Shown: positions 27,477 through 51,133 of the stretch, in pieces
Numbering within the stretch: position 1 is the stretch's first letter
How the letters are laid out: each line of letters opens with the position of its first letter
From: Myxococcota bacterium
Lineage (GTDB): Bacteria > Myxococcota_A > UBA9160 > SMWR01
DNA: 57,520 nucleotides
NCBI GenBank assembly: GCA_035258825.1
Contig: DATFWW010000173.1
Coordinates: forward strand, 1-57,520
Direction of reading: 5' to 3'
Translations under genes and position numbers: made by a program
The notes under the pieces: model-generated
What the model saw: the letters and a program-made list of their open reading frames with translations, nothing else
What the model was told of the DNA's origin: nothing
Databases searched by the model: none

Positions 27477-27506
27477 GCGCGCGGCGAGCCGGAGGCGAGC
27501 GAAGTC
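27477..27506 (+). repeat. GCGAAG-rich short repeat, intergenic copy
   Basis: cgcgcggcgagccggaggcgagcgaagtcg matches the copy at 45168..45198 (cgcgcagcgagccgaaggcgagcgaaggcc) at about 27/30 positions. It lies between stop 27456 and GTG 27576. Confidence 0.6.
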
Positions 27507-27575
27507 GAAATGGTGGCCTCCGATGGTGCAAATCCTCGAGCGCAGCGTCTTGGGTCTTGTCGCTAGCTGGATCCC

Positions 27576-32972: not shown

Positions 32973-33189
32973 CGCGCAAGCATGGCGCAGCTGAAATGCC
33001 GACACGACCCCGGCGCGCGCGCGCGCAGCGCGCACGCTCTGATGTTGATCGCCCGCGCGCTAACGCTCGCGTCGGCTGCTCGGAGAAGCCAGCCGACGTG
33101 GTGCTGATCACCGCACTCGCGCGCGAGCTGCCGAGCGTCTCATGTGCGAGCCTCGAGATCGTGGCGCGTGCGCACGGCGGCGACATTCC

Positions 33190-33445
33190 CGCGCCCGTGC
33201 TCGCCCACGCGCGGTCGCTCCACCGCGGCGAGGTCTCCTACACGGACGAGAGGGTCGGGCGGCTCGTCTCGGGCATCGAGGCGAAGCGCTGGCTCGACGA
33301 GACGCTCGTCGTGTTCACGGCCGATCACGGAGGGTGCCTCGAGCACCGCGTCTACTTCGAGTACGTGCTCGATCCGGGCCAGATCAGCGAGGAGCTGCGC
33401 GCGTCGCGGCGCGCGCTCGGCTATCTCGAGGTGGGCGAGCGATGA
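33190..33445 (+). pseudogene. Sulfatase gene fragment (central/C-terminal remnant only)
   Basis: Within ORF 32996..33445, ..SLHRGEVSYTDERVGRLVSGIEAKRWLDETLVVFTADHGG matches the conserved sulfatase Y..v.y.D..vG / DHG block. The N-terminal catalytic part is absent. ATGA overlap with the intact sulfatase. Confidence 0.45.
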
Positions 33446-36138: not shown

Positions 36139-37380
36139 TCAGGATAGACGAACTCGCAGATGCTCGGGACTGCGGAACGCCATGCCCGTGATGCGCGGGG
36201 GTCGAGAGCGCGGGTCGAGGCGCAGATCGGCGAACCGGTCGAGCAGCGCGTCGATCGCCACCGTCGCCTCGAGGATCGCGAGGCGCGAGCCCGCGCAGTA
36301 GTGGCGGCCGAGGCCGAACGCGAGGTGGGATTCGCCGCGCCGGTCGGCGTCGAAGCGGTCGGGGTCGGGGAACCGGGTCTCGTCGCGGTTGGCGGAGCCG
36401 ATGCCGAGCACGATCTCGCACCCGCGCGGAATCCGCGTGCCCGCGATCTCGACGTCGTCCACCGACATGCGCGAGACGATCTGGATCGGCGATTCCCAGC
36501 GCAGCGTCTCTTCGAGCAGCGCGGCGATCCGCCCGCGGTCGGCCCGCACCGAGCCGAGCAGTTCCGCATCGCGCAGGAGTGCGAACAGCGCGCTGCCGAG
36601 CAGATGATAGGTGGTCTCCGCGCCCGCGAGCACGAGCAGGAACAGGAAGCTGATCACCTCCGGGTCGGACAGATGCTCTCCCTCGACGCTCGCGCTGGCG
36701 AGCTCGCTGATCAGGTCGTTGTGCGGATGCGCGCGCTTCTCCGACACGAGCGGCGCCAGCGCGTCGGTCATCTGCTTCACCGCAGCGAATCCGCGCCCGG
36801 GATCGCAGGCAACCCGCGAGAGGTCGACCGCCCAGTCGTGGAACGTCTTCACGTTCTGCGGTGGGAGCCCGAGGATCTCCGTGAACACGCGCAGGGGATA
36901 CAGGTAGGTGAAGTCCGCGACGAGTTCGGCGGCACCGCGCGCGGCGAACGAGTCGATCACCGCATGCGCGATCGTATCGACGATCTTCGGGAACGCGCCG
37001 CGCAGCGCGCGTGGCGCGAGCGACGGCGTGATCAGGCCGCGGTGCTTGAGGTGCTCCCGGCCGTCCATCCCGATCAGCGTGCGGCCGATCACGATGCCGA
37101 TCCCGCGCTCGATGTTCGAGCGGCTCGAGTAGCGCTCGTGATCCCGCAGCACCGCGACCACGTCGTCGTAGCGCGACACGAAGAACGAGGTGTCGGGGAG
37201 GAACTCGATCACGGGCGTCTCGCGGCGCGCGCGCGCGTAGATCGGGTAGGGATTCTGGATCGGAGCCATCGGCCCGGCGTGGAACAGCTCGGGCACCGTG
37301 AACGGCTGGATCTCCGCGGCGGGTTCGATCGGCGGCGGCGGGAGAGCCGGGTCGAGAGCGACGGCGGCGGTGTCGTCCAT
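36139..37380 (-). CDS. Cytochrome P450
   Basis: ATG 37380 (MDDTAAVALDP..). I-helix LVLAGAETT, ETLRW, and heme loop FGLGRHYCAG. Confidence 0.9.
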   Translation of the reverse strand: MDDTAAVALDPALPPPPIEPAAEIQPFTVPELFHAGPMAPIQNPYPIYARARRETPVIEFLPDTSFFVSRYDDVVAVLRDHERYSSRSNIERGIGIVIGRTLIGMDGREHLKHRGLITPSLAPRALRGAFPKIVDTIAHAVIDSFAARGAAELVADFTYLYPLRVFTEILGLPPQNVKTFHDWAVDLSRVACDPGRGFAAVKQMTDALAPLVSEKRAHPHNDLISELASASVEGEHLSDPEVISFLFLLVLAGAETTYHLLGSALFALLRDAELLGSVRADRGRIAALLEETLRWESPIQIVSRMSVDDVEIAGTRIPRGCEIVLGIGSANRDETRFPDPDRFDADRRGESHLAFGLGRHYCAGSRLAILEATVAIDALLDRFADLRLDPRSRPPRITGMAFRSPEHLRVRLS

Positions 37381-37504: not shown

Positions 37505-39244
37505 TCATACGAGCCCGAGCTCCGCGAGCCGGGCGAACAGGGCGAGATCTCCCTCGATCGCGAGGCGCCGCGTGCTGAACGCCTCGGCACCCGACAGCTC
37601 GCCGTTCGCGATCCGCAGGTAGCTGGCCGCGTCGGCGCGGAGCGTGGCCCCGGCGTCGGCCCGTTCCGCTTCCGCGCGCTCGACGGTGAGCTGCCCACCG
37701 CGCACCGCGACGATCCACGTTCCGCCGCCCTCGCCCGAGAGTGCGTACTGCACGACGAGGTCGACGCCGTCCGCTTTCGCCGCGTCGAAGTGGCCGGCCA
37801 TCTTTGCGAATAGGTCGTCGATCGAGTCTGCGCGGCGCGCGGCGAGCCGCGCTGCGCGCTCCCGCTCGCTCGCGAGCACGTCGGCCTCCATCGCGGCGAT
37901 CGACTCGGCGAGGATCGCGACGATCGCGTCGGCGCACGCGCGGTCGATCGTGAGCGGCGGCGCCAGGCCCACCACCTCGGTGCCCATCGCGCGCACGTAG
38001 AGCCCGCGCTCCCAGGCCTCCGCCTCCACGCGCGCGCACGCCGAGTGCGGCCGCGAGAAGCCGCGTTTGGTCGCCTTGTCCGCGACCAGCTCGATGCCGA
38101 TCATCAGGCCCACGCCGCGAATCTCGCCGACCGAGTCGAAGCCGCTCAGCACATCGCGCAGGCGCGCGAGCAGATAGGCGCCGACGTCGGCGGCGTTCGC
38201 GGGCAGCCGCTCGCGCTCGATGATGACGAGGTTGGCGAGCGCGGCCGCGCAGCAGGTGGGGTGCCCCATGTAGGTGAAGCCGTGGCTGATCGGCATCTGG
38301 TCCGGCAGCTTCGCGCTGATCGTGCGGTAGATCTCTTCGGAGACGACCGACGCGCCGAGCGGCAGATATCCGCTCGTGATCCCCTTCGCGAGCGTGACCA
38401 CGTCGGGACGCACGCCGTAGCGCTCGAAGCCGAACATCGTCCCCGTGCGCCCGAACCCCGTGACGACCTCGTCGAGGATCAAGAGGATCCCGTGGCGGTC
38501 GCAGATGTCGCGGATGCGCGTGAAGTAGTCGTCGGGAGGCGGGATGATGCCGCCCGCGCCGAACACGGGCTCGGCGATGAACGCGGCGATCGTGTCGGCA
38601 CCTTCTCGCTCGACGAGGCGCTCGAGATCGTCGGCACATGCGAGCCGGCAGCTAGGGTACGTCTTGCCGAGCTCGCACTTGTAGCAGTAGGGCGCCGCGA
38701 CGTGAGCGAAGCCGGGCGCCTCGGGGCCGAAGTTCCAGCGCATCGGCATGATGCCGGTAGCCGTCATCGTGGCGATCGTGAGCCCGTGATAGGCGTGGTG
38801 GCGCGCGACGATCTTGGTGCGGCGCTCCTCGCCGCGCATCGCGCGGTACAGCCGCACGAGCTTGATGCTGGTCTCGTTCGCCTCCGAGCCCCCCGACGAG
38901 AACATCACATAGGAGAGGCCGTACTCGGGCGGGAACATCGCGCACAGCTTCTCGGCCAGCTCGATCGCACGCGGATGCGACTGGCCGTGGAAGGTCGTGG
39001 AGTACTCGAGCGTCTCCATCTGCTCGCGCACGGCCGCGGCGATCTCGCGGCGGCCGTGCCCGACCGCCGTGCACCAAAGCCCGGCGAATCCGTCGATCAG
39101 GCGCCGGCCGCGGTCGTCGGTGATCCACCAGCCGTCGCCCGCGACCACCACGCGCGCGCCGTCGCGCTCCATCTCGCGCGGCGGCGTGAGCGGATGGATC
39201 AGGTGGGCAGCGTCACGCGCGGCGAGGTCGGTCTTCTCGTGCAT
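37505..39244 (-). CDS. Class III (omega) aminotransferase fused to a C-terminal SCP2 sterol/lipid-carrier domain
   Basis: ATG 39244 (MHEKTDLAARDAAHLIHP..). SSGGSEANE, LILDEVVTGFGRTG and TLAKGITSG (PLP Lys). The last ~105 aa, DDLFAKMAGHFDAAKADGVDLVVQYALSGEGGGTWIVAVRGGQL..GELSGAEAFSTRRLAIEGDLALFARL, form an SCP2 pattern. Confidence 0.8.
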   Translation of the reverse strand: MHEKTDLAARDAAHLIHPLTPPREMERDGARVVVAGDGWWITDDRGRRLIDGFAGLWCTAVGHGRREIAAAVREQMETLEYSTTFHGQSHPRAIELAEKLCAMFPPEYGLSYVMFSSGGSEANETSIKLVRLYRAMRGEERRTKIVARHHAYHGLTIATMTATGIMPMRWNFGPEAPGFAHVAAPYCYKCELGKTYPSCRLACADDLERLVEREGADTIAAFIAEPVFGAGGIIPPPDDYFTRIRDICDRHGILLILDEVVTGFGRTGTMFGFERYGVRPDVVTLAKGITSGYLPLGASVVSEEIYRTISAKLPDQMPISHGFTYMGHPTCCAAALANLVIIERERLPANAADVGAYLLARLRDVLSGFDSVGEIRGVGLMIGIELVADKATKRGFSRPHSACARVEAEAWERGLYVRAMGTEVVGLAPPLTIDRACADAIVAILAESIAAMEADVLASERERAARLAARRADSIDDLFAKMAGHFDAAKADGVDLVVQYALSGEGGGTWIVAVRGGQLTVERAEAERADAGATLRADAASYLRIANGELSGAEAFSTRRLAIEGDLALFARLAELGLV

Positions 39245-39245
39245 C

Positions 39246-40061
39246 TCAGCGGCGTCCCCTCTTCGCCCGCGCGTCGATCGTGCTGCGCCGCACGGCGCGC
39301 CGCATGAACCCGGGTGCAAACGCCTGGATGACGTAGGCCGGTGAAATTCCGCCCGGGTAGGTGATCTCGTGCTTGCCCTTGGCGAGCGCGTCGATCATCG
39401 CGTCGACGAGCCCTTCGACCTCCACCATGCCCTTCTTCGCGGCCGGCGGCATGCGCGACAGGGCCTCCTCGTCGAAGAACGGCGTGCGGATCACGCCCGG
39501 GCACACGGTGAGCACGTGTACGCCGGCGTCTTCGACCTCGATCGACAGCGACCCCGCGAGCCCGACCATGGCGAACTTGGTGGCTGCGTACGCTGACTCC
39601 TCGGGCGGCGCGATCTTGCCCGCCACCGACGCGACGAACACGACCCAGCCGCGGCGCTGCTCGACCATCGACGGCAGCAGCGCCTTCGTGAAGTACACGG
39701 AGCCGAGATAGTTCACGCGCATCATCCGCTCGATGTCTTCGAGCGACCACTCGAGGAAGGTGCGGTGATGCCCGTAGCCCGCGTTGTTCACGAGCAGGTC
39801 GATGCCGCCCCACACCTCGCGCGTGCGCATGGCGGTGTCCGCCACCTGCTTGGCCTCGGCCACGTCGCAGGGCAGCACCATGGTCTCGCCGCCGCCGACG
39901 CGGATCTCTGCCGCGAGTCGCTCGAGCTCGTCCGCGCGCCGCGCGACCAGCGCCACGCGCGCGCCCTCGCGCGCGAGGCGCAGCGCGAGCGCGCGGCCGA
40001 TCCCGCTCGATGCGCCGGTCACGAGCGCCCGCAGCCCCTTGTACGAGCGCAGCTGGGTCAT
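39246..40061 (-). CDS. Short-chain dehydrogenase/reductase (SDR)
   Basis: 271-aa ORF with LVTGASSGIGRA, NNAG and YAATKFA. There is a 1-nt gap to the downstream aminotransferase. Confidence 0.85.
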   Translation of the reverse strand: MTQLRSYKGLRALVTGASSGIGRALALRLAREGARVALVARRADELERLAAEIRVGGGETMVLPCDVAEAKQVADTAMRTREVWGGIDLLVNNAGYGHHRTFLEWSLEDIERMMRVNYLGSVYFTKALLPSMVEQRRGWVVFVASVAGKIAPPEESAYAATKFAMVGLAGSLSIEVEDAGVHVLTVCPGVIRTPFFDEEALSRMPPAAKKGMVEVEGLVDAMIDALAKGKHEITYPGGISPAYVIQAFAPGFMRRAVRRSTIDARAKRGRR

Positions 40062-40711
40062 CGGCCGGCCTCCACCAACGCGAGGATCACCGACTGGAGA
40101 TGCTGCTTGGTGCGCTCGCGGATGCGCGGATCGGACAGGTCCTTGCCGAACAGCTTCCTGTAATGCGCGGTCGAAAGGATGTGGTGGTGCAGGATGCCCT
40201 CCACGGTGATCAACAGGAGCCCGAGGTCGTGCTTCATGGCGCCGAGCTTCTGGTCGGCCATCGACCGGTCGATGAACTGCACCCAGCTCTGCTCCTGGAG
40301 CGAGACGCCCTTCGCGAGCCCCTCGCCGAGTGCGGCGCGCACCGTCAGTGTCACCCAGCTGCGCTTCTCGAGGAAGAAGTCGAACAGCTCGTCGACCACC
40401 TTCTCCACGATCGTCGCAAGGTCGCTCTGGCCCGCCACCACCGCGCCCACGCGCGCGAGGATCTCGTCGTCCCAGCGCGACAACACCGCCTGGTAGAGGC
40501 CCGGCTTCGAGCCGAAATGGTGCTGGATCGTGAACGGGCGCACGCCGCAGGCGCGCGACAGCTCGCGCACCGAGACGCCGCGGTAGCCGCGGCGGGCGAA
40601 CAGGATCTCCGCGCGGTCGAGGATCCGCGTGCGCGTGCGCTCGGCCTCCGCCTGCGAGCGCCGGCCCGCGGCGCGTGCGGCCGAATTCCGATTGCGTTTC
40701 TTATTGGCCAC
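40058..40711 (-). CDS. TetR/AcrR-family transcriptional regulator
   Basis: GTG 40711 (VANKKRNRNSAARAAGRR..). HTH region ILDRAEILFARRGYRGVSVRELSRACGVRPFTIQHHFGSKPGLY. ATGA overlap with the SDR start. Confidence 0.8.
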   Translation of the reverse strand: MANKKRNRNSAARAAGRRSQAEAERTRTRILDRAEILFARRGYRGVSVRELSRACGVRPFTIQHHFGSKPGLYQAVLSRWDDEILARVGAVVAGQSDLATIVEKVVDELFDFFLEKRSWVTLTVRAALGEGLAKGVSLQEQSWVQFIDRSMADQKLGAMKHDLGLLLITVEGILHHHILSTAHYRKLFGKDLSDPRIRERTKQHLQSVILALVEAGR

Positions 40712-40792: not shown

Positions 40793-42043
40793 ATGCGCGC
40801 GCTCGTGATCGGCAACGACATGCCGCGGCTCGCCGCCACGAGACTGCTTGGCGCGATCACACCGCGCGCGTTCGTCGGCCCGTTCGCGCCGGTCCAGCTG
40901 CGCGAGATCCCGGCACCGGTACTGCCCGCGCCCGACTGGGCGGTCGCGCGCACGCTTCTCTGCGGGCTGTGCGGCAGCGATTACAAGCAGGTTTTCATGA
41001 ATGGCGCGTTCGACAACCCGATGACCGCGATGATCTCGTGGCCGCAGGTGCTCGGGCACGAGGTGGTCGGCGTGATCGACGAGGTCGGCGCGGGCGTGGA
41101 GCGGCGCAGCATCGGCGAGCGCGTGGTGCTTAACCCGTGGCTGTCGTGCGCCACGCGCGGCCTGCCGCTGTGCAACTGGTGCGAGGAGGGCGACTACGCG
41201 CAGTGCCTGAATTTCGGGCGCGGCCACGCGGCGCGCGGCATCCACACCGGGAACAGCGCGACCGCCACGGGCGGCTTCGCGCCCCGTGTGCCCGCCCACG
41301 AATCGCAGTGGCTCGCGATCCCCGACGCGGTCGGCGACGACGCCGCGGTGCTCGCCGATCCGTTCTCCGTGTCGCTGCACGCCATCCTGCGCACGCCGCC
41401 GCCGCCCGGCGGCACCGCGCTCGTGTACGGCGCGGGCACGCTCGGCCTGCTCGCGATGGCGATCCTGCGCGCGATCCACCCGCACGTGCGCGTGGTCGCG
41501 GTGGCGCGCTTCGATCACCAGGCACGGCTCGCGGAGAAGTTCGGCGCGGAGCGCGTGCTGCCGCACCGGCCCGCGCGCTCGGTGATCGAGTCGATCGCGG
41601 AGCTGTGCGGCGCAGAGATCGCGCGGCCGTGGCGCGGCCTGCCGATGCTGCTCGGCGGCGCGGACGTAATCTACGACACCGTGTCGTCGCCCGAGACGCT
41701 CGAGGTCGGGCTGCGGATCGCAAACATACGCGGGAGCATCGTGGCGCTCGGCGTCGAGCCGCCGCGCCGCTTCGAGTGGACGCCGCTCTACTTCAAGGAG
41801 CTCTCGATCGTCGGCTCGAACGGCTTCGGGATCGAGGAATACGACAATCGCCGCCAGCACGCGATGGAGTGGTACTTCGAGTTCCTGCGCGCGAAGCAGA
41901 TCGACGTCAAGCCGATCATCACCCACCGCTTCCCGCTCGGGCGCTACCGCGACGCGTTCATGACCTGCTATGCGCAGGGGGAACACGGGGCGGTCAAGGT
42001 ATTGTTCGACCGATTCAGCGACGACGAGGAGAGTACGAGATGA
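40793..42043 (+). CDS. Zn-dependent medium-chain dehydrogenase/reductase (MDR)
   Basis: ATG 40793 (MRALVIGNDMPRL..) with CGLCGSDYK, GHEVVGVIDEVG and YGAGTLGLLA. Confidence 0.8.
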   Translation: MRALVIGNDMPRLAATRLLGAITPRAFVGPFAPVQLREIPAPVLPAPDWAVARTLLCGLCGSDYKQVFMNGAFDNPMTAMISWPQVLGHEVVGVIDEVGAGVERRSIGERVVLNPWLSCATRGLPLCNWCEEGDYAQCLNFGRGHAARGIHTGNSATATGGFAPRVPAHESQWLAIPDAVGDDAAVLADPFSVSLHAILRTPPPPGGTALVYGAGTLGLLAMAILRAIHPHVRVVAVARFDHQARLAEKFGAERVLPHRPARSVIESIAELCGAEIARPWRGLPMLLGGADVIYDTVSSPETLEVGLRIANIRGSIVALGVEPPRRFEWTPLYFKELSIVGSNGFGIEEYDNRRQHAMEWYFEFLRAKQIDVKPIITHRFPLGRYRDAFMTCYAQGEHGAVKVLFDRFSDDEESTR

Positions 42044-45000
42044 GCCGGCTGCTCTTGGGAATCGATCTCGGAGGCGGCAGCGTCCGCTGCGTGCTGCTGG
42101 ACGCCGAGACGGCCGTGGTCTGGGAGTCTGCGCTCGCGATCGGCTCGCACCCCGCTGAGGCCGGCGGCGGGCTCGGCTACGACCTCGCCACCGACGCGCT
42201 CTGGGAGAGCGTCGGGCTCGCCGCGCGCGGCGCGCTCGCGCGCGCGGGTGCCGTGCCGGAAGACGTGGCCGGCGTGGCGGTCACCGCGATGCGCTTCGCG
42301 TCGGTGCTGCTCGACGCCGCGGGCGAGGTGCTGTTCGCGGTGCCGAACCGCGACGCGCGCTCGATCGGCGAGGCGATGCGGATCGCCGCGGAGCGCGGGG
42401 ACGCGGTGCTCGCCGCGACCGGGATGTGGCCGCTGCCGATCCACGCGTCGGCGCGCCTCGCGTGGCTGCGCAGCGCGCGGCCCGAGCTGTTCGATCGCGC
42501 CGCCACCCTGCTCTCGCTCTCCGACTGGCTGAACTATCGCCTGTGCGGGGACCGGATCACCGACTACTCGCAGGCGGGCTGCACGGGCTTGTTCGACCTG
42601 GGGCGGCGCGAGTGGAGCGCAGACCTGATCGACGCGATCGGCCTCCCGCGCGCGATCTTTCCGGAGGCGCGCCCGTCGGGCGAGCGGATCGGCGAGCTCG
42701 ACGCGCGCGCGGCGCAGCATCTCGGGCTCGCGGCCGGAACGCCCGTCTCGCTCGGCGGAGGCGACACGCGCTGCGGGCTGCTCGGTGCGGGCGCGGTCGC
42801 GGACGGCGACGTCGGCCTCGTCGCGGGCACCACCGCGCCGCTCGAGCGCGTGCTCTCCGAGCCCGTGATCGACGCCGAGGGCCGCCTGCGCAGCGGACAC
42901 CACGCAATGCCGGGGTGTTTCGTGCTCGAGGCGAACGTCGGCCCGGTGGGCGAGGGCCTCGCGTGGCTCGCGCGGCTGCTGCACCCGGACGACGCGCGTC
43001 CCGAGGAGCGCTTCAGCGCGGAGGCGTCGACCGCCGCGGTGGGCTCCGCCGCGATGCTCGCGAACATCGGCGCGCTGATCGCCAACGATCGTCAGCCCGC
43101 CTTCCCCGTCGCCTCGTTCGCGCTCTCGCACATGACGGGCACGCAGGGCCGCGCCGCGCGCGCGAGCCTCGCCCGCTCGGCGCTCGAGGGCACGGCGTGC
43201 GCCGTGCGCGCGAACCTCGAGCAGCTCGCCCGCGTGCTCGGCAGCGGCGCCGAGCGCGTGCACCTCGCGGGCGGGCTCTCGCGCAGCGCGCTGTTCGCGC
43301 GGATCCTCGCGGGCGTCACGGGCTGCGAGGTGGTGCGCGCAGCGGCGCCCGAAGCCACCGGGCTCGGCGCGGCGCTGTGCGCGGGCGTCGGCGCAGGTGT
43401 GTACGGCGACGTGCTCGAGGCGGCGCGCAAGGGCGTGCGCGCGGGCGAGGTGGTGGAGCCCGTCGCCGGCGAGGCCGCTGCGTACGAGCAGCTCTATCGC
43501 GACTGGAGCGAGCTGCGCGCTGCGGGTGAGCAGTCCACCGCGCCGATCGCGATGCGCCACACGGTCCCGGTTGCACTCGCGGCCGCGCAGCGCACGGGCC
43601 GCCGCGCGTCGCCAGCGCACCGGCCCAAGGCACTCGTCACGGCGGCGTTCGACGATGCGTCGATCGCGAAGCTGCGCGGCTTCGCCGACGTGGAGTACGC
43701 GAGCTTCCGCGACCGCATGCAGCTGCTCACGGGGCCGAGCCTCGTGAAAGCGCTCGAGGGCTGCGAGGTGCTCGTCACCGAGGTGGACGTCGTCGATGCG
43801 AAGGCGCTCGAGAAGCTCCCGAATCTGCGCGTGGTAGCGGCGTGCCGCGGCGACGCCGTGAACGTGGACGTCGCGGCGTGTACCGCGTTCGGCATCCCCG
43901 TGCTGTTCGCGCCCGGCCGCAACGCCGACGCGGTCGCCGATCTCACCGTCGCGTTCCTGCTCAACCTCGCCCGGCGCCTGCCCGCCGCGACCCGGTTCCT
44001 GGCCGACCCCGCCATCACCGCGGGCAACCTCGCTGCGATGGGCAAGGCGTTCCGCGGCCTGCAGGGCTACGAGCTCTGGTCGAAGACGGTCGGCCTCGTC
44101 GGCCTCGGCTCGGTCGGGCGCGCGGTGGCGCGCCGGCTCTCGGGCTTCGGCGTGCGCCTGCTGGTGGCGGATCCGTTCGTGTCCGTCGAGCAGGCCGTGC
44201 TCGCGGGCGCCGAGAAGGTCGAGCTCGCAGAGCTCTTGCGCGAGAGCGACTTCGTGAGTCTGCACGCAGCGGTCACCGACGCGACGCGCGGCCTGCTCGG
44301 CGCGGACGAGTTCGCCGCGATGAAGCCGGGCGCATACCTGATCAACACCGCACGCGCGGCGCTCCTCGACGAAGCCGCGCTCGTCGCCGCGCTCGACTCG
44401 GGCCATCTCGCGGGCGCGGCGCTCGACACGTTCGCCGTGGAGCCGCCCGGCGCCGACCATCCGCTCGTGCGCCACGGCAGCGTGATCCACACGCCGCACG
44501 TCGGCGGCAACACGAACGAGGTCGCGGCGCATCAGGGCCGGATCATCGCCGACGGACTCGAGCAGCTGCTGTGCGGGGAGGCGCCGCGCTGCATCCTCAA
44601 TCCCGAGACGCTCGCGGGCTTCTCGTGGACGGGTCCGCGCCGCGTGCCGACCGCCGACGAGCTCGCCGCGCTCGCCCGGCGCGCAGGCCCCGCGGTGTCC
44701 GACCTCCAGCGCGACGCGCAGGCCGAGGCGCAGCAGGAGAAGCTCGACGAGAGCGCGGCACCCGCCGAGATCGTGGCGGCGATGAAGCGGATCCTCGAGG
44801 CGTTCACGGCCGCCATGGCGAAGGACGACCGCGTGCGCGAGTTCAGCGCCGACAAGGACGTCGCGCTCTACTTCGTGCTGCCCGACGTGGGACTCGACCT
44901 CCACATCGCGCTGCGCGAAGGGAACGTCGCGGGCGGGCTCGGCAAGCCGGACGGCGGGTCGGTGGTCCAGTTGCGCATGCGCGCGGCGATCCTCGACGGG

Positions 45001-45879
45001 ATGTTCACGGGCAAGGTGAACGCGATGGAAGCCGCGATGCAGGGTGAGGTCGCGTTCACGGGCGACGCCGGCAAGGCGATGGCGATCCAGCAGATGCAGG
45101 GCGACATGCGGCGCCTCTACACCGCGGCGCGCGCGCAGCTGGGCGACCCGGGTGATCTCGCAAGTCTCGCGCAGCGAGCCGAAGGCGAGCGAAGGCCATC
45201 GGGGTCGATCCCGCAGCCGGGCGCGCCCGTGAAGCCCGTCGGCGGCAACGACATCCGCGCCGAGATCGTCGCGGTCACCCGGGAGCTCTACGAGATCCAG
45301 GTAATCACCGCGACGGGCGGCAACGTGTGCGCGCGGATCCCCGGCGCGCCGGATCAGGTGTGGATCACGCCGAGCCAGCTGTTCAAGGGCGATCTGCGCC
45401 CCGAGGTGCTGGTGCGGATCGACCTCGACGGCAAGTCGCTCGACGAGGGTGCGCGCTCGCCCTCCTCCGAGTGGAGCATGCACACCCAGATTCTCAAGAA
45501 GAAGCCCGAGGCCAAGGCGGTGATCCACGCCCATGCGCCGTACGCCACCACGCTCGCCAACGCGGGCCTGCCATTCCTGCCGATCAGCACCGAGGCCGCG
45601 TTCTTCGGCGACATCCCGCGGGTGCCGTTCATCATGCCGGGCACCGACGCGCTCGCTGAGGCAGTCTCGGAGGCGATGAAGGAGAGCTGGGCCGTGTTCA
45701 TGGTGAACCACGGGCTCGTGGTGGCGGGGCGAAGCTTGCGCCGCGCGGCCGACATGGTGGAGATCGTGGAGCGCTCGGCTCAGCTGATCCTCGGCTGCTA
45801 CGCGGTGGGCAAGGAGCCGCCCGTGCTGCCCGAGAAGACGGTCAAGATGCTGCGCAAGATGGGAGATCTCGTGGCGTGA
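42040..45879 (+). CDS. 1279-aa four-domain fusion: FGGY carbohydrate kinase / D-2-hydroxyacid dehydrogenase / SCP2 / class II aldolase-adducin domain
   Basis: ATG 42040 (ATGA overlap with the MDR stop), one uninterrupted frame. FGGY: LLLGIDLGGGSVR..GGGDTRCG..LAGGLSRS (about aa 1-495). 2-HADH: VGLVGLGSVGRAVARRL..INTARAALLD..HTPHVGG (about aa 530-860). SCP2: about aa 905-1035. Aldolase_II: ..VIHAHAPYATTLA..MVNHGLVVAG (about aa 1070-1279). Confidence 0.85.
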   Translation: MSRLLLGIDLGGGSVRCVLLDAETAVVWESALAIGSHPAEAGGGLGYDLATDALWESVGLAARGALARAGAVPEDVAGVAVTAMRFASVLLDAAGEVLFAVPNRDARSIGEAMRIAAERGDAVLAATGMWPLPIHASARLAWLRSARPELFDRAATLLSLSDWLNYRLCGDRITDYSQAGCTGLFDLGRREWSADLIDAIGLPRAIFPEARPSGERIGELDARAAQHLGLAAGTPVSLGGGDTRCGLLGAGAVADGDVGLVAGTTAPLERVLSEPVIDAEGRLRSGHHAMPGCFVLEANVGPVGEGLAWLARLLHPDDARPEERFSAEASTAAVGSAAMLANIGALIANDRQPAFPVASFALSHMTGTQGRAARASLARSALEGTACAVRANLEQLARVLGSGAERVHLAGGLSRSALFARILAGVTGCEVVRAAAPEATGLGAALCAGVGAGVYGDVLEAARKGVRAGEVVEPVAGEAAAYEQLYRDWSELRAAGEQSTAPIAMRHTVPVALAAAQRTGRRASPAHRPKALVTAAFDDASIAKLRGFADVEYASFRDRMQLLTGPSLVKALEGCEVLVTEVDVVDAKALEKLPNLRVVAACRGDAVNVDVAACTAFGIPVLFAPGRNADAVADLTVAFLLNLARRLPAATRFLADPAITAGNLAAMGKAFRGLQGYELWSKTVGLVGLGSVGRAVARRLSGFGVRLLVADPFVSVEQAVLAGAEKVELAELLRESDFVSLHAAVTDATRGLLGADEFAAMKPGAYLINTARAALLDEAALVAALDSGHLAGAALDTFAVEPPGADHPLVRHGSVIHTPHVGGNTNEVAAHQGRIIADGLEQLLCGEAPRCILNPETLAGFSWTGPRRVPTADELAALARRAGPAVSDLQRDAQAEAQQEKLDESAAPAEIVAAMKRILEAFTAAMAKDDRVREFSADKDVALYFVLPDVGLDLHIALREGNVAGGLGKPDGGSVVQLRMRAAILDGMFTGKVNAMEAAMQGEVAFTGDAGKAMAIQQMQGDMRRLYTAARAQLGDPGDLASLAQRAEGERRPSGSIPQPGAPVKPVGGNDIRAEIVAVTRELYEIQVITATGGNVCARIPGAPDQVWITPSQLFKGDLRPEVLVRIDLDGKSLDEGARSPSSEWSMHTQILKKKPEAKAVIHAHAPYATTLANAGLPFLPISTEAAFFGDIPRVPFIMPGTDALAEAVSEAMKESWAVFMVNHGLVVAGRSLRRAADMVEIVERSAQLILGCYAVGKEPPVLPEKTVKMLRKMGDLVA
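45168..45198 (+). repeat. GCGAAG-rich short repeat, in-frame copy in the SCP2-aldolase linker
   Basis: cgcgcagcgagccgaaggcgagcgaaggcca encodes ..AQRAEGERRPS.. Compare FAQRGEAERRPDG in the SWIM gene and the intergenic copy at 27477. Confidence 0.6.
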
Positions 45880-45886
45880 GGCGTGC

Positions 45887-46771
45887 ATGACCGCGCAAGG
45901 AGACGGCGTCGCTGCCGCGGTGATCGCGGCGTGCCTCTACAACCTCGCGGTCGTCGTCCAGAAGTCGCAGGCCGAAGTCGTCGCCGAGACCGGCGTGGCG
46001 ATTCTCGGCCCGCTGATGGCGCGCCCGGTCTGGCTCGTCGGCGTGGCGATCCAGGTAGTCGGGCTCGTCTTCCACGGCTTCGCGCTCACCGCGGCACCCG
46101 TCACGGTCGTGCAGCCAATCATCGCGAGCGGCATCGCGTTCCTCGTGCTGTTCGCGGCGCTGATCCTGCGCGAGCGCCCGTCGCCGCGCGAGATCTTCGG
46201 GATGCTCCTCGCGGTGTCGGGTGTGAGTCTGCTCGCGCTGCAGATCGAGGGGCCGGTTTCGCTCGCGCCGCTCGACGCAGAGGACTTCGCCTATGCGATC
46301 GCGAGCGCTGCGGCGCTCGCGGGTGCCCTCTGGTGGTTCGGTCGCTCGTGGCGCGTCGCGTCGACCAGCGTGGGCGCGGCGCTGGTCGGTGCCGCTGCCG
46401 GCGTGGGACAGGGCATGAGCGACGCGATGAACCGCCTCGCGGGCGCCTGGTTCGCGCCGCACGGCTGGGCTCCGCCGACGGGGATCATGTGCGCGGCGCT
46501 CGCGTTCCTGCTCTTGTTCGGGCTCCAGGGGTTCGTCGCGGCGCAGAACGCCTTCCAGCGCTACCGCGCCAACACCGTGGTTCCGTGCATGCTCACCGCG
46601 CAGCTGTTCGTGCCGGTCGCGATGGCGATCATCCTGTTCGGCCAACCCGGTCCGCGCGACGGCGAAGACGCCGGCGTGTGGATCCTCGCGCTGGCGCTCA
46701 CGTTCGCGGGGATCGTCTCGCTCGCGCGCGCGCCGGCCGTCGAACGCACGCTCGGGAACTCGGCGAACTGA
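45887..46771 (+). CDS. Membrane permease, NIPA/EamA-like (DMT superfamily)
   Basis: 294-aa ORF with about 9 TM helices, beginning 7 nt after the fusion gene. The family call is tentative. Confidence 0.55.
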   Translation: MTAQGDGVAAAVIAACLYNLAVVVQKSQAEVVAETGVAILGPLMARPVWLVGVAIQVVGLVFHGFALTAAPVTVVQPIIASGIAFLVLFAALILRERPSPREIFGMLLAVSGVSLLALQIEGPVSLAPLDAEDFAYAIASAAALAGALWWFGRSWRVASTSVGAALVGAAAGVGQGMSDAMNRLAGAWFAPHGWAPPTGIMCAALAFLLLFGLQGFVAAQNAFQRYRANTVVPCMLTAQLFVPVAMAIILFGQPGPRDGEDAGVWILALALTFAGIVSLARAPAVERTLGNSAN

Positions 46772-48414: not shown

Positions 48415-49710
48415 CTAGTCGCGCGCGCCGTGCTCCAGCTTCGGGAACGCGCGGCCGATCGCGACCAGCCACTGCACGAGGCGCACCGCGTGCAGCGAGA
48501 GCACGGGCTTGCCGTTCGAGCACAGCGCCACCGACAGCGCGCGGTCCGGGTCGGCCCACGAGAAGATGTTCGAGAAGCCGACGTGACCGAACGCGCGCTC
48601 GTTGTCGGAGCCGAACAGCGAGACACTGTGGCTGCCGAGCATGAAGCCGAGCCCATAGCGGATCGGCAGGCCGAGCGTGAAGTCGATCTCCCACCACGCC
48701 GACTCCCCGGTGGCGTGGCGGATCGTCGCGGGCTCGAGCACGCGCGCGCCGTCCTGCTCGCCGCCGTCGAGCAGGCACTGGTAGAACGCGCACAGCTCAC
48801 CCGCGGTGGTGACGATGTTGGCGGACGGCACGATCCCGGTCAGGTAGCGCGGGTCGTTGGTGAGCTCGATCACGTGCCCGATCTCGGCGCCGAGCGCGTT
48901 GCGCAGGATCGTCGAGATCGGCCACGGCACGGGCGGGCCCGTGACCGCGTCGCGCGCCACGAGCGGCAGATCCTCCTGCCGCACGCCGTAGCGCATCCAG
49001 CGGTAGCCGAGCGGCGCGATCAGCTCGCGCTCGAGCACCGTGCAGATGTCGTCGCCTGTTGCGCGCCGCACGACTTCCGCCAGCACGAACCCTCCGGAGA
49101 CGGCGTGATAGGCGAGCACGCGGCCGGGCCGCGATCGCAGCTCCGCGTCGCACATGATCTCCACCACCTTCTCGGGCTGGCCGAGCAGGTCGAGGTCCAT
49201 TGCGTCGGGCGGCAGGTTCGGGATCCCGGCCTTGTGCGCGAGCAGGTGGCGCAGCGTGATGCGGTCCTTGCCGTGCTTCGCGAACTCCGGGATGAAGTCG
49301 CAGACGCGGTCCTCGAGGTGGAGCACGTGCTTCTCGTCGAGCTTGTGGATCACCATCGCGGTGATCGCCTTGCTCGCGGAGAAGATGTCGAACGGGGTCT
49401 CGGTGCTGACCGAGAGCTTGGGCGCGTCGGGCGGGTCTTGCGGCGCGTTGCCGCGCGCGTGGCCGATCGCGCGGTTCAGCACGACGACGCCGCGGCGCCG
49501 CACGCACAGCGAGATCGCGGGGTGCGCGCCGCTGGCGTAGATCGCGCGCGCGGCGTCCCACACGCGCTCGACGGCTTCGGCCGGGACGTCGGAGCCGCCC
49601 GGGTCCTCGGGGCCCACGTCGAGCACCTCGTCGAGGTCGCGCGGGAGGCGACACCGCTGCGTGCCGGGCAGATTCAGCTGTCCGATCCAATGCAGGGGGT
49701 CGATCGGCAT
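48415..49710 (-). CDS. Serine hydrolase, beta-lactamase/esterase family
   Basis: 431-aa ORF with FDIFSASKAITAM (SxxK). It begins 3 nt after the SWIM gene stop. Confidence 0.8.
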   Translation of the reverse strand: MPIDPLHWIGQLNLPGTQRCRLPRDLDEVLDVGPEDPGGSDVPAEAVERVWDAARAIYASGAHPAISLCVRRRGVVVLNRAIGHARGNAPQDPPDAPKLSVSTETPFDIFSASKAITAMVIHKLDEKHVLHLEDRVCDFIPEFAKHGKDRITLRHLLAHKAGIPNLPPDAMDLDLLGQPEKVVEIMCDAELRSRPGRVLAYHAVSGGFVLAEVVRRATGDDICTVLERELIAPLGYRWMRYGVRQEDLPLVARDAVTGPPVPWPISTILRNALGAEIGHVIELTNDPRYLTGIVPSANIVTTAGELCAFYQCLLDGGEQDGARVLEPATIRHATGESAWWEIDFTLGLPIRYGLGFMLGSHSVSLFGSDNERAFGHVGFSNIFSWADPDRALSVALCSNGKPVLSLHAVRLVQWLVAIGRAFPKLEHGARD

Positions 49711-49713
49711 CCG

Positions 49714-51132
49714 TCAGTCCTCGTCGTCCTCGTTGACGGCGCCCGCGCCGAGATAGACATCGAGGCCCGTGATCGAGGCGTTGCGGTAGGTGCGCGCCAT
49801 CGCGGCCTCGCAGTTCGACTGCCCGCGCCAGAACGGGAAGCCGCCGAGCCGCGCCACGATCGCTCCGGGCTTGCGCGGGATGCGCACCTCGATCGCCTCG
49901 TCGCGGCTGCGCACCGCGCCGCCCCAGAACACCTCCGGATCCTCCGGCAGCGGCTCGTCCGGGATCACGCGCTCGGGCGGCGGCTCGATCACGGCCACGG
50001 GCAGCGGCACGAACGCCTCGCCCTCCTCGCCGGGGGCACGCTCCCCGTCGGCCCCGTGCGCCGGCTCGGCCGGCGGCGGCGGAGGCCGCGGGATCGCGGC
50101 GGGGCCCAGCGCCGCGAGCAGCTCGCCGCGCTCCATGCCGCGCAGCTGGAAGATCAGGAACGGATCGCGGTCGAACTCCTCGCCGAGCAGGTAGTAGACC
50201 GCGGCGACGTGCTTGCAGGGGTTCGCGTTGTCGGGGCACGAGCAGGCGGCCTTGAGGTCGCCGCTCGCGTTCGGGAACAGCGACAGGCGCTGCTCTTCGA
50301 ACACCTGCTCGATGCTCTCGGGGATCTGACCCATGCCGAGCTCGACCGCGATGTCGGGCCGCTGCGCGAGCGCGCGCGTGAGCTTCTTCCAGTCGGTGCT
50401 CGACAGCATCGAGAAGTGCATGCGCACGAGATACGGTGCATCGCGCGATCCCTGGACGTGGGCGGTGACGAAGCCCTTGCCGATCTCGATGTCGACGATG
50501 TGGCCCTGGCGCGCGTAGTTGCGGCCGCGCCCGAGCCGGCGCCCGACCGCGAACCGCTCGAGCACTTCCACCCACCGGCGCGCCCACCAGTTCTCGCCCG
50601 CGCGCCCGCGCCGCGCGCGCTGATTGTTGCCGCGCTGCGGGCGGCCGTGACCGCGGCCGCGCCCGCGCTGCGGGCGGCCGCTGCGGCCGCGATTCTGCCA
50701 GCCGTCTGGTCTTCGCTCGGCTTCGCCTCGCTGCGCGAAACCTCCGTCTGGCCTTCGCTCGGCTTCGCCTCGCTGCGCGAAACTTGCGCCGTCCCAGTGA
50801 TCGGGCCTGGGGTCGAAGTCGGAGCGCGGCTCGCCGCCGTTCGGGCCGTCGGTCGGTGCGACCTCGCCGCCGGCGGGCCGTGCTTCGACCACCGCGTTCG
50901 CGCCGAACTCCGAGCCCGCTTCGCGCGGCACCACCTCTTGCGCGGGCGGCGGCGCGTTCCAGTGCGAATTCCGATTCGGGCCGTCGCCGCCCCCGTCGAA
51001 CGGGCCGCCCGGACCCGGTCCGCCGGGGCCGCGCGGCCCCCGCGGCCGGCGCCGCGGCCGGCGGCGTCTCCGCCGGCCCTCGCCTCCCGGGCCGGGACCG
51101 CCGAATCCGCCGCCTGCGCCTTCTTCGCTCAT
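49714..51132 (-). CDS. SWIM zinc-finger protein with a long Arg/Gly-rich N-terminal region
   Basis: ATG 51132 (MSEEGAGGGFGGPGPGG..). About 190 aa of RG/RGG-rich low complexity precede ..CSCPDNANPCKHVAAVYYLL (CxC..CxH SWIM). 1-nt gap after the SNF2 stop. Confidence 0.8.
   Translation of the reverse strand: MSEEGAGGGFGGPGPGGEGRRRRRRPRRRPRGPRGPGGPGPGGPFDGGGDGPNRNSHWNAPPPAQEVVPREAGSEFGANAVVEARPAGGEVAPTDGPNGGEPRSDFDPRPDHWDGASFAQRGEAERRPDGGFAQRGEAERRPDGWQNRGRSGRPQRGRGRGHGRPQRGNNQRARRGRAGENWWARRWVEVLERFAVGRRLGRGRNYARQGHIVDIEIGKGFVTAHVQGSRDAPYLVRMHFSMLSSTDWKKLTRALAQRPDIAVELGMGQIPESIEQVFEEQRLSLFPNASGDLKAACSCPDNANPCKHVAAVYYLLGEEFDRDPFLIFQLRGMERGELLAALGPAAIPRPPPPPAEPAHGADGERAPGEEGEAFVPLPVAVIEPPPERVIPDEPLPEDPEVFWGGAVRSRDEAIEVRIPRKPGAIVARLGGFPFWRGQSNCEAAMARTYRNASITGLDVYLGAGAVNEDDED
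50702..50785 (-). repeat. Tandem 42-bp duplication (2 copies, 40/42 identical) of the GCGAAG-rich repeat inside the SWIM gene
   Basis: Copy 1 at 50702..50743 and copy 2 at 50744..50785, together encoding FAQRGEAERRPDG twice. The 27-nt core cttcgctcggcttcgcctcgctgcgcg is identical to 55333..55359. Confidence 0.85.
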
Positions 51133-51133
51133 G

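Follow-up and report, generated by a model that had tools for sequence, protein, structure and literature searches.

A widespread kinase-dehydrogenase-SCP2-aldolase fusion protein as a candidate enzyme of lipid-polyol catabolism in bacteria

Introduction

Why would a bacterium join a sugar-type kinase, a hydroxyacid dehydrogenase, a lipid-binding domain, and a sugar phosphate aldolase in one chain? The question is raised by a gene on the plus strand (positions 42040 to 45879) of a 57,520-nucleotide stretch of DNA from a Myxococcota bacterium (GenBank assembly GCA_035258825.1, contig DATFWW010000173.1, positions 1 to 57,520), the whole of which is referred to here as the window. The gene is complete, with 1279 codons and a stop, and is supported by its open reading frame (ORF), its GC content at third codon positions, and its homologues. 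An initial annotation, made from the letters alone, had described a single polypeptide in which four recognizable domains phosphorylate, oxidize, bind lipid, and cleave, in that order. All four domains do lie in one frame above Pfam thresholds, and the spans proposed then match those given below, drawn with the wider NCBIfam and AlphaFold boundaries, to within a few codons. The protein may be a multifunctional enzyme of catabolism by which a hydrophobic, lipid-like molecule loses its polyol end; taken as a whole, we rate this mechanism slightly below an even chance.

Four domains in one reading frame

The ATG start codon at 42040 is preceded by a GAGGAG motif and overlaps the stop codon of the upstream gene, a Zn-dependent alcohol dehydrogenase (Zn-ADH), as ATGA. 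The window has a GC content of about 71%. Third-position GC in the four-domain frame runs between 0.85 and 1.00, in one phase from end to end, and is unchanged across all three domain junctions. The opposite strand carries an antisense ORF of 1306 amino acids (41968 to 45888, minus strand), the codon-position composition of which is wrong and the translation of which is of low complexity and rich in Arg and Ala; it is a shadow ORF of high-GC DNA. Because such DNA carries a shadow of this size, ORF length alone is not evidence for a gene in the window, and the coding strand was identified by composition and homology.

Domain assignments were judged against the gathering cut-offs of Pfam and, for NCBIfam equivalogs, against curated whole-protein cut-offs, while residue invariance refers to an alignment (A1) of 21 homologues at 48 to 86% identity. 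A scan with the Pfam hidden Markov models (HMMs) rejected none of the four domains. All features of the protein lie on the plus strand. The first is an FGGY carbohydrate/polyol kinase domain (42052 to 43518, residues 5 to 493), recognized by Pfam, NCBIfam, and its match to a solved structure. Its halves are FGGY_N (residues 5 to 249, E 6.6e-40, 137.7 bits against a cut-off of 28.8) and FGGY_C (residues 260 to 451, E 4.1e-19, 69.6 bits against 27). D9, G11, G12, and D242, the last within GGGDT, are invariant, and by comparison with glycerol kinase and xylulokinase we take them to be the DxGxxS/T phosphate loop and the catalytic Asp of the GGxDT motif. Among NCBIfam models the autoinducer-2 kinase LsrK (NF008187) matches best, at 243.5 bits and below its cut-off of 528; LsrK (5ya0) is also the best solved structure, and xylulokinase is next among characterized relatives. 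The fuculokinase equivalog is not reached (122 against 471 bits).

A poorly conserved linker 1 (43519 to 43620, residues 494 to 527), with no stop and no change of frame, leads to a D-isomer 2-hydroxyacid dehydrogenase domain (43621 to 44613, residues 528 to 858), assigned through Pfam, NCBIfam, and the Protein Data Bank (PDB). The 2-Hacid_dh and 2-Hacid_dh_C models cover residues 548 to 850 (best E 5.7e-53; 179.4 and 50.7 bits). The best match in both NCBIfam and the PDB is phosphoglycerate dehydrogenase (PGDH); the D-3-phosphoglycerate dehydrogenase equivalog TIGR01327 is not reached (212.6 against 454 bits). Invariant residues include the GxGxxG motif (685 to 690), D711, and the triad R772/E801/H820, and because D711 is present, nicotinamide adenine dinucleotide (NAD) rather than NADP is the expected cofactor.

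Linker 2 (44614 to 44763, residues 859 to 908) is charged, variable in length, and modeled at a predicted local distance difference test score (pLDDT) of 57 to 59. It precedes a sterol carrier protein 2-type (SCP2) domain, predicted to bind lipid (44764 to 45141, residues 909 to 1034). Here the Pfam match (residues 944 to 1019, E 9.3e-07) scores 29.6 bits against a cut-off of 21.3, and SCP2 had already been annotated in most homologues found by the protein search. An AlphaFold model of residues 900 to 1040 has a pLDDT of 92.5 and a predicted template modeling score (pTM) of 0.86, and when it is compared with the PDB by Foldseek, the top 47 matches are all of SCP2 fold (E down to 1.9e-06), including C-terminal domains of alkylsulfatases, SCP2 itself, the SCP-2L domain of the multifunctional enzyme MFE-2 (1ikt), and UbiJ. 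At the level of the predicted fold, the SCP2 identity is thus confirmed.

Linker 3 (45142 to 45249, residues 1035 to 1070) is predicted to be disordered and varies in length and sequence across homologues. In a model of residues 860 to 1279 (mean pLDDT 88.6, pTM 0.61), residues 1047 to 1061 (model residues 188 to 202) are the sole stretch with pLDDT below 50, and the placement of SCP2 relative to the aldolase is unreliable. Foldseek finds only aldolase folds with this two-domain model and recognizes SCP2 when that domain is modeled alone.

The last domain is a class II, metal-dependent aldolase (45250 to 45858, residues 1071 to 1273; Pfam, PDB, and Foldseek evidence), with an Aldolase_II match at residues 1075 to 1250 (E 2.4e-46, 158.4 bits against 22.2). 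Its metal site (H1163/H1165/H1224 with E1144) and its phosphate-binding T-G-G-N (1092 to 1095) and S1142-S1143 are invariant. The best PDB sequence match is 6btd (100 bits, 34% identity), followed by FucA at 79 to 85 bits and YgbL/OtnC at 72. The aldolase 6btd is DrdA, which acts on 5-deoxy-D-ribulose-1-phosphate in the 5-deoxyribose disposal pathway and yields dihydroxyacetone phosphate (DHAP) and an aldehyde (PMC6079011). The model superposes on FucA at a template modeling (TM) score of 0.88 and on DrdA at 0.90, which together with the sequence match places the domain in the FucA/DrdA branch of class II aldolases, as the initial annotation had implied. The L-fuculose-phosphate aldolase equivalog NF005302 is not reached (109.8 against 264 bits); the OtnC model gives 98 bits, and matches also include 6vop and 6voq, which are structures of YgbL. 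Because catalytic and cofactor residues are invariant in the 21 homologues, all three enzyme domains look active.

Conservation and age of the fusion

Among 5.8 billion proteins searched were an identical one on an independently assembled JGI contig (P0001) and at least 120 clusters of full-length homologues (48 to 88% identity) with the same Pfam set, several of them on megabase-size contigs or chromosomes. In addition, we scanned one genome per GTDB species and obtained 599 matching stretches. Of these, 591 code for a relative of the query; because the patterns used were derived from the dehydrogenase domain, some of the 591 may be dehydrogenase-only relatives. The loci discussed from here on (L-numbers) are the best 80 of the 599 stretches. 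They represent Myxococcota, Halieaceae, other Gammaproteobacteria, Anaerolineae, other Chloroflexota, Syntrophaceae/Smithella, Thermoleophilia, Binatia, and Novosphingobium, and include Mycobacterium persicum, Halioglobus japonicus, and Bellilinea caldifistulae.

Architectures were called in these loci with domain HMMs built from the alignment. The full fusion is present in 55 of the 80, spanning Myxococcota, Halieaceae, Anaerolineae, and M. persicum. Ten to 11 loci (Syntrophaceae, Smithella, Novosphingobium) have a kinase-dehydrogenase gene followed by a separate aldolase gene, without SCP2. One locus (L059) is split into kinase-dehydrogenase and SCP2-aldolase genes, and another (L063) into kinase-dehydrogenase-SCP2 and aldolase genes, such that natural splits occur at two of the three junctions, dehydrogenase/SCP2 and SCP2/aldolase. 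In sugar catabolism of the rhamnulose/fuculose type, as the initial annotation remarked, kinase and aldolase are normally separate proteins; in the present family, fusion is the state of most of the best loci. Kinase, dehydrogenase, and aldolase parts are always together, either fused or adjacent, and SCP2 is optional and usually retained. Because the three activities are fused in 55 of 80 species genomes and adjacent where split, they can be assigned to one pathway. The SCP2 domain had also been described as an unexpected insertion. Far from an odd local one, it is a conserved module of the family under clear sequence constraint and is duplicated in some members (L056, P0013, P0014, P0119), with linker 2 hosting the second copy in the latter three.

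Could the long frame nevertheless be an artefact, either of a chimeric assembly or of a frameshift or read-through that joins separate genes? Chance long ORFs are common in high-GC DNA, as the antisense frame illustrates, and a repeat is present in one linker. We regard the chance as negligible. A single coding phase covers the whole ORF, the same protein stands on an independent assembly, and at least 120 clusters share its architecture. Because these architectures recur, fused or adjacent, across the 80 loci, an assembly artefact is excluded and the domain junctions are ancient.

The repeat just mentioned is a short dispersed element, a copy of which lies in frame inside linker 3 (45168 to 45200, plus strand), as judged by probe matches and alignment with other copies. 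Its 27-nucleotide core within this 33-nucleotide stretch reads CGCGCAGCGAG[C/G]CGAAG[G/C]CGAGCGAAG. Further copies lie on the minus strand at 50702 to 50743, 50744 to 50785, and 55324 to 55365, with a degenerate copy at 27486 to 27507, and a 22-nucleotide probe finds four matches in the window against 0.01 expected by shuffling. The GCGAAG-rich repeat noticed in this linker is thus real. It had been suggested that a repeat insertion created the SCP2/aldolase junction, which we reject. The same junction is found in several phyla, in homologues of 45 to 57% identity that each have a variable linker of their own, and the linker is predicted to be disordered here and varies in all homologues. The close relatives L001, L002, and L024 lack the core at their loci; the L001 protein (P0007, 84% identity) has unrelated sequence in linker 3, and the orthologue P0003 (86% identity) has a similar peptide, AQRAAGERSPSG. 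Because the junction is common to distant homologues and the core is absent from close relatives, the repeat is a late passenger tolerated in an old disordered linker.

Copies of the repeat swap GGC-GAA-GCC for GCC-GAA-GGC, by which a tiny hairpin would be kept. The copies at 50702 to 50785 form two tandem 42-nucleotide units. These lie within an interval without family match (50572 to 51255) between a gene for an SNF2-family helicase with DUF3670 (1065 amino acids) and an adjoining gene for a SWIM zinc-finger protein (49714 to 54331, minus strand).

Proposed reaction

LsrK and xylulokinase phosphorylate a terminal CH2OH beside a CHOH, and PGDH oxidizes a CHOH beside a CH2-O-phosphate. By analogy, the FGGY domain would use ATP to phosphorylate the terminal CH2OH of a polyol, and the PGDH-like domain would then use NAD+ to oxidize the adjacent CHOH, giving a ketose-1-phosphate-like intermediate, R-CHOH-CHOH-CO-CH2OP. 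A metal-dependent retro-aldol cleavage by the FucA/DrdA-type aldolase would release DHAP and an aldehyde, R-CHO. The SCP2 domain, on its flexible linkers, would hold the hydrophobic part and probably pass the substrate from site to site. We infer this reaction order, like the lipid nature of the substrate and its possible hopanoid identity discussed below, from homology and gene context.

That R is a lipid is suggested because of the SCP2 domain, a second SCP2 fusion encoded next door, and the beta-oxidation genes that accompany the family, and we consider a lipid-tailed polyol moderately probable as the substrate. The aldehyde would be oxidized to an acid, converted to a CoA ester, and enter a steroid-type side-chain beta-oxidation; a candidate oxidizer is encoded in each of the contexts described below, and a ligase for the acid in many of them. 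Candidates for the aldehyde oxidizer are a cytochrome P450 or pyrroloquinoline quinone (PQQ) dehydrogenase in aerobes, an aldehyde:ferredoxin oxidoreductase in anaerobes, and an Aldedh-like enzyme in Mycobacterium. The phosphorylate-oxidize-bind-cleave sequence of the initial annotation stands as a reasonable order, but the ordinary rhamnulose/fuculose-type sugar catabolism to which it was likened is unlikely because no equivalog cut-off is reached and the neighborhoods are of lipid and steroid type.

Gene neighborhoods in other genomes

Neighboring genes were compared by clustering all ORFs of the 80 loci and annotating cluster representatives. In Halieaceae, Amidohydro_2 and Rieske/KshA_C oxygenase genes lie upstream and divergent from the four-domain gene. 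Downstream are a VOC/glyoxalase gene and an AMP-dependent ligase, followed by two acyl-CoA dehydrogenases, a P450, and a PQQ dehydrogenase, with a TonB receptor, RPE65, an SCPx-type thiolase with DUF35, and a CoA-transferase nearby. The order in Myxococcota is DUF35, SCPx-type thiolase, TetR, P450, four-domain gene, and ligase, with overlapping stops and starts; such overlaps join TetR, P450, and four-domain genes into operons in L082 and L086. P450 homologues occur in 22 of the 80 loci, often immediately upstream of the four-domain gene.

The AMP-dependent CoA ligase directly downstream belongs to one orthologous group in 23 loci (Halieaceae and Myxococcota). Five of these ligases score 618 to 664 bits on the model for CasG (steroid-24-oyl-CoA synthetase), short of the cut-off of 750 but above the next family, which reaches about 355. 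The selectivity of CasG and StdA1 is for a C5 side chain and not for the ring system (PMC8399759). The thiolase-like neighbor has its best PDB match in 6ok1 (187 bits), the steroid side-chain aldolase Ltp2 with ChsH2-DUF35 (PMC12329534), and the paired acyl-CoA dehydrogenases are of the heteromeric large/small-subunit type.

Four Anaerolineae loci (L022, L030, L036, L072) share, in shuffled order, a GntR/UTRA regulator, an aldehyde:ferredoxin oxidoreductase, a class III aminotransferase, and an M28 peptidase, a set that may be an anaerobic version of the pathway. The first three also carry a gene scoring 431 to 441 bits on TIGR03466, the "hopanoid-associated sugar epimerase" HpnA (cut-off 367.65), which was not detected in L072. 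Class III aminotransferases (cluster c32) recur beside the four-domain gene in Anaerolineae and Thermoleophilia. In M. persicum, an Aldedh-like gene, a weakly HpnA-like gene (126 bits), and a wax-ester synthase lie downstream. Among the neighbors in the 80 loci we identified no squalene-hopene cyclase, HpnH, or HpnG, and no MtnK-type kinase or MtnA-type isomerase stands next to the four-domain gene in any of them.

Candidate substrates

The proposed chemistry would require a terminal 1,2,3,4-tetrol on a bulky lipid. Hopanoids are a tentative and, on balance, doubtful answer, with bacteriohopanetetrol fitting the gene context best. Its ribose-derived 32,33,34,35-tetrol would be converted to the 35-phosphate and then to the 34-keto-35-phosphate, which would amount to a 5-substituted 5-deoxy-D-ribulose-1-phosphate and call for DrdA-type chemistry. 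Cleavage would give DHAP and a C32 aldehyde, and oxidation of the latter C32 hopanoic acid. The side chain of this acid, ring-CH(CH3)-CH2-CH2-COOH, would have the shape of a C24 bile acid and suit a CasG-like ligase, then a Sal/Ltp2-type cleavage. The C32 hopanoic acid and the C27 ketone trisnorhopan-21-one are classic natural breakdown products of bacteriohopanepolyols in organic geochemistry, and both would be the expected output of the proposed route followed by two steroid-type side-chain cycles. Because it needs no oxygen, the route could run in Anaerolineae. It is possible, if less than probable, that the four-domain family is the missing first enzyme of bacteriohopanepolyol side-chain catabolism, feeding the CasG-like ligase and steroid-type enzymes.

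Amino analogues may enter the same route. An aminotransferase and a reductase (a short-chain dehydrogenase/reductase (SDR), the Zn-ADH, or an HpnA-like enzyme) could bring in 35-aminobacteriohopanetriol via ribosylhopane. No function is known for hpnA, and no enzyme is known to interconvert ribosylhopane and bacteriohopanetetrol (PMC12583986).

Other lipids were considered as substrates and rejected. Alkylglycerol ethers would give an alkyl-DHAP without the free 3-OH or 4-OH that a retro-aldol reaction requires, and the side-chain hydroxyl patterns of bile alcohols and sterol polyols yield no ketose-1-phosphate.

Gene neighborhood in the window

Gene calling by codon composition and Pfam places the four-domain gene in one of two divergent operons flanking an 81-bp intergenic region. 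The first gene of its operon encodes the Zn-ADH (40793 to 42043, plus strand; Pfam ADH_N and ADH_zinc_N), a medium-chain dehydrogenase of polyol dehydrogenase type. Its nearest NCBIfam models are YdjJ and the threonine, inosose, idonate, and galactitol-1-phosphate dehydrogenases, all below cut-off. Orthologues adjoin the four-domain gene in L001, L002, and L078, and a similar Zn-ADH is nearby in L086. The probable third gene, 7 bp downstream, encodes a membrane protein resembling the drug/metabolite transporter (DMT)/EamA family (45887 to 46771, plus strand; weak Pfam EamA, NIPA, and TMEM234 matches and coding-type third-position GC).

Divergent across the 81 bp is a TetR-family regulator (40058 to 40711, minus strand; Pfam TetR_N); TetR is also the regulator beside the orthologous gene in L082 and L086. 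It is followed on the minus strand by an SDR (39246 to 40061; Pfam adh_short, E 3e-55), a class III (omega) aminotransferase with a C-terminal SCP2 domain (37505 to 39244; Aminotran_3 E 9.5e-101, SCP2 E 1.3e-11), and a P450 as the last gene (36139 to 37380; Pfam p450). The true start of the aminotransferase-SCP2 fusion is probably the ATG at 39244, giving 579 amino acids; the TTG of the longest ORF at 39319 would overcall it by 25 codons. More than 120 homologous clusters of about 579 amino acids have this fusion and make up a large uncharacterized family, and the TetR(TetR_C_41)-SDR-aminotransferase/SCP2 module is conserved, unaccompanied by the four-domain gene, in Acidimicrobiia and further lineages. 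This divergent operon could feed amino analogues into the proposed route by conversion of amine to aldehyde to alcohol. A second P450 (46836 to 48074, minus strand; Pfam p450) is convergent with the plus-strand operon and has an orthologue at the same position in L001.

Several other features of the window were observed. Within 11852 to 15297 (minus strand), an old yellow enzyme (OYE)/Pyr_redox_2 flavoprotein (657 amino acids) of 2,4-dienoyl-CoA reductase or BaiCD/BaiH type adjoins an FAD_binding_2 protein (491 amino acids, fumarate-reductase/KstD-like). Pairs of this kind typically serve in the reduction and dehydrogenation of enoates or steroid rings. A 91-nucleotide direct repeat with a spacing of 420 nucleotides (12175 to 12685) is internal to this gene pair. 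Two genes of beta-lactamase fold (serine hydrolase/esterase) lie at 29929 to 31092 and, just past the second P450, at 48415 to 49710, both on the minus strand; they could encode lipid esterases. A sulfatase-fragment ORF (149 amino acids, 32996 to 33445, plus strand) overlaps the start of a 480-residue sulfatase with a twin-arginine translocation (TAT) signal (33442 to 34884), and the pair at 32996 to 34884 could be two genes or one disrupted or duplicated sulfatase. Tandem units of 15 to 18 nucleotides rich in CCGCCGCCG occupy 23111 to 23203 inside a predicted gene (23092 to 23964, minus strand), the coding strand of which would give a Gly-rich low-complexity stretch.

Weighing the alternatives

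Several observations weigh against a lipid-polyol enzyme, and a hopanoid one in particular. D-2-hydroxyacid dehydrogenases normally need a carboxylate or phosphite-like anion beside the oxidized carbon, so that a neutral polyol phosphate would be an unusual substrate. None of the four domains reaches an NCBIfam equivalog cut-off. The HpnA-family gene exceeds its cut-off in only 3 of the 80 loci, all from related Anaerolineae. Searches of the window by tblastn found no CasG-like ligase, acyl-CoA dehydrogenase, thiolase, DUF35, or HpnA, nor the Rieske, Amidohydro_2, aldehyde:ferredoxin oxidoreductase (AOR), M28, or VOC partners, with the aminotransferase as the sole partner matched. The P450s offer no substrate clue, as macrolide and steroid P450s (6gmf, PikC, CYP142, CYP125) score alike in PDB sequence searches, and DMT/EamA transporters usually carry small solutes. 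Gene contexts are heterogeneous and in part sugar-like: GDPD, GH1, and sulfotransferase genes accompany one Myxococcota group, the double-SCP2 form of L085 stands alone among housekeeping genes, and Bellilinea has a SorC/sugar-binding regulator upstream as well as components of an ATP-binding cassette (ABC) transporter, namely two oligopeptide-type ATPase genes and a family-5 solute-binding protein about 5 kb downstream. Because the SCP2-less forms of Syntrophaceae adjoin a generic fatty-acyl-CoA ligase, the family need not share a single substrate.

One alternative is that the same kinase, dehydrogenase, and aldolase logic degrades a soluble or aromatic-tailed polyol, for example a pentitol, a tetritol, a 5-deoxypentitol, an AI-2-like diketone, or the ribityl chain of a flavin. 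The SCP2 domain would then be a structural spacer or a binder of a non-lipid hydrophobic group, and riboflavin, for one, would be left as formylmethylflavin after release of DHAP. The nearest relatives of the kinase (LsrK, xylulokinase) and aldolase (DrdA, FucA) are all small-sugar enzymes, the coupled Zn-ADH is of polyol/sugar dehydrogenase type, regulators of types that sense sugars or sugar phosphates lie nearby (SorC in Bellilinea, GntR/UTRA in Anaerolineae), transporters occur in the form of the DMT permease in the window and the ABC system of Bellilinea, and SCP2-less forms exist. We nonetheless think it unlikely. SCP2 is kept in at least 55 of the 80 loci, is well conserved, and is at times doubled, and a second SCP2 fusion adjoins the gene in the window. 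Genes that recur beside the family encode CoA ligases, acyl-CoA dehydrogenases, an Ltp2-like aldolase, and P450s rather than sugar transporters or isomerases, and a two-carbon or otherwise small aldehyde would need no CasG-like ligase. An acid-sugar route akin to tetronate (threonate/erythronate) catabolism is suggested by the dehydrogenase, whose family normally acts on 2-hydroxy acids and whose matches include both PGDH and PdxB models. A hydroxy acid would be phosphorylated and then oxidized in PdxB- or PGDH-like fashion, and the aldolase-fold domain would serve as an OtnC/YgbL-like decarboxylase, epimerase, or dehydratase, in keeping with the OtnC and YgbL matches noted above. However, DrdA and FucA outscore YgbL/OtnC on that domain, the known tetronate kinase is of the DUF1537 family and not FGGY, and neither SCP2 nor the lipid-type neighbors would have a role; we hold this route to be very improbable.

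The remaining alternative keeps a lipid and changes its head. Sphingoid bases and other lipid aminopolyols, such as phytosphingosine (a 2-amino-1,3,4-triol), could be converted by an aminotransferase to the 2-ketone, phosphorylated at C1 by the FGGY domain, and cleaved to DHAP and a fatty aldehyde, with the dehydrogenase domain serving 2-hydroxy analogues. This would account for the aminotransferase-SCP2 fusion in the divergent operon and for the class III aminotransferases (c32) of Anaerolineae and Thermoleophilia; an M28/M20-like hydrolase in the Anaerolineae set could deacylate a ceramide-like amide, and an aldehyde oxidoreductase and acyl-CoA ligases lie nearby, as does the wax-ester synthase in M. 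persicum. Yet the aminotransferase is absent from most of the 80 loci, its module is also found without the four-domain gene, and the dehydrogenase domain, always present, would be redundant. In addition, the adjacent ligase of 23 loci is CasG-like and not of the straight-chain fatty-acid type, and the HpnA-family and Ltp2-like neighbors point to polycyclic substrates. A sphingoid substrate is therefore rather improbable, and removal of the polyol end of a bulky lipid remains our preferred reading.

Significance

Members of the family occur widely in soil, marine, and anaerobic bacteria, under generic or misleading database names such as "autoinducer-2 kinase," "class II aldolase/adducin family protein," and "NAD(P)-dependent oxidoreductase." A literature search on the domain combination, on hopanoid degradation, and on bacteriohopanetetrol with aldolase found no description of it, and in the same literature we found neither an enzyme or gene for hopanoid degradation nor a described enzyme that cuts the polyol tail off a bulky lipid. 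Each domain comes from a known family, and multi-enzyme chains with SCP2 are known (MFE-2, SCPx); the combination, its probable reaction sequence, and its context are new to the literature searched. If the lipid-polyol mechanism is true, the protein would complete three steps by itself and bring its own lipid holder, gaining a triose phosphate from a membrane lipid by trimming the polar end and leaving the remainder for beta-oxidation.

Hopanoids are among Earth's most abundant natural products and are key molecular fossils. If they are the substrate, the C32 hopanoic acids and C27 hopanoid ketones, both dominant in sediments, would gain a biochemical origin, and HpnA-like or SDR enzymes and the aminotransferase-SCP2 fusion would channel aminobacteriohopanetriol and ribosylhopane into the route. 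C32 acids and side-chain-shortened hopanes could then record biological and not abiotic alteration, which would affect how these biomarkers are read. There is a realistic chance that the four-domain family opens up hopanoid catabolism. Even with another lipid polyol or aminopolyol as substrate, the protein would be a "Rosetta stone" that ties three enzyme families to one unknown pathway.

Comparison with known systems

In context, there is a likeness to the bile-acid C5 side-chain module (StdA1/CasG ligase, Scd acyl-CoA dehydrogenase pair, Shy hydratase with DUF35, and Sal/Ltp2 aldolase), which resembles the flanking genes of Halieaceae and Myxococcota in its CasG-like ligase, paired acyl-CoA dehydrogenases, and Ltp2-like protein with DUF35. 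The likeness lies in context and not in the protein: no ligase reaches the CasG cut-off, and we know of no kinase-dehydrogenase-SCP2-aldolase protein from bile-acid clusters. The peroxisomal enzymes MFE-2 and SCPx likewise combine catalytic domains for successive steps on lipids with SCP2 in one chain, and alkylsulfatases have an SCP2-like C-terminus. However, the catalytic domains are entirely different, SCP2 is internal and not C-terminal in the four-domain protein, and the chemistry proposed here acts on a polyol end, as opposed to an acyl-CoA or a sulfate ester.

Among sugar pathways, L-fuculose and L-rhamnulose catabolism (FucK/FucA, RhaB/RhaD) shares the pairing of an FGGY kinase with a class II aldolase that gives DHAP and an aldehyde, but the four-domain protein has a dehydrogenase in place of the isomerase and a lipid-type context. 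The Lsr pathway (LsrK, LsrG, LsrF) contains the nearest characterized kinase relative and has DHAP as an end product, and a SorC/LsrR-type regulator adjoins the gene in Bellilinea. In contrast to Lsr, the kinase score is far under the LsrK cut-off, LsrG and LsrF homologues are absent, and the aldolase is of class II and not of the thiolase-like class I fold.

The first two proposed steps have their counterpart in the erythritol (EryA, EryB) and galactitol-1-phosphate dehydrogenase routes, which lead from a polyol through its phosphate to a ketose phosphate; in erythritol catabolism the FGGY kinase EryA acts first and the polyol-phosphate dehydrogenase EryB follows. The operon Zn-ADH, too, matches the galactitol-1-phosphate, idonate, and inosose dehydrogenase models below cut-off. 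Unlike these routes, the four-domain dehydrogenase is of the D-2-hydroxyacid type and not of the GlpD or Zn-ADH type, the aldolase follows directly, and the enzymes are fused and tethered to a lipid-binding-type domain. The last proposed step is that of the DHAP shunt and 5-deoxyribose disposal (DrdK-DrdI-DrdA; MtnK-MtnA-Ald2), whose FucA-type class II aldolase forms DHAP and an aldehyde from a 5-substituted D-ribulose-1-phosphate. The shunt obtains its ketose phosphate from an aldose by kinase and isomerase, whereas the four-domain protein, with an FGGY kinase, fused enzymes, and SCP2, would make it from a polyol by kinase and NAD-dependent dehydrogenase.

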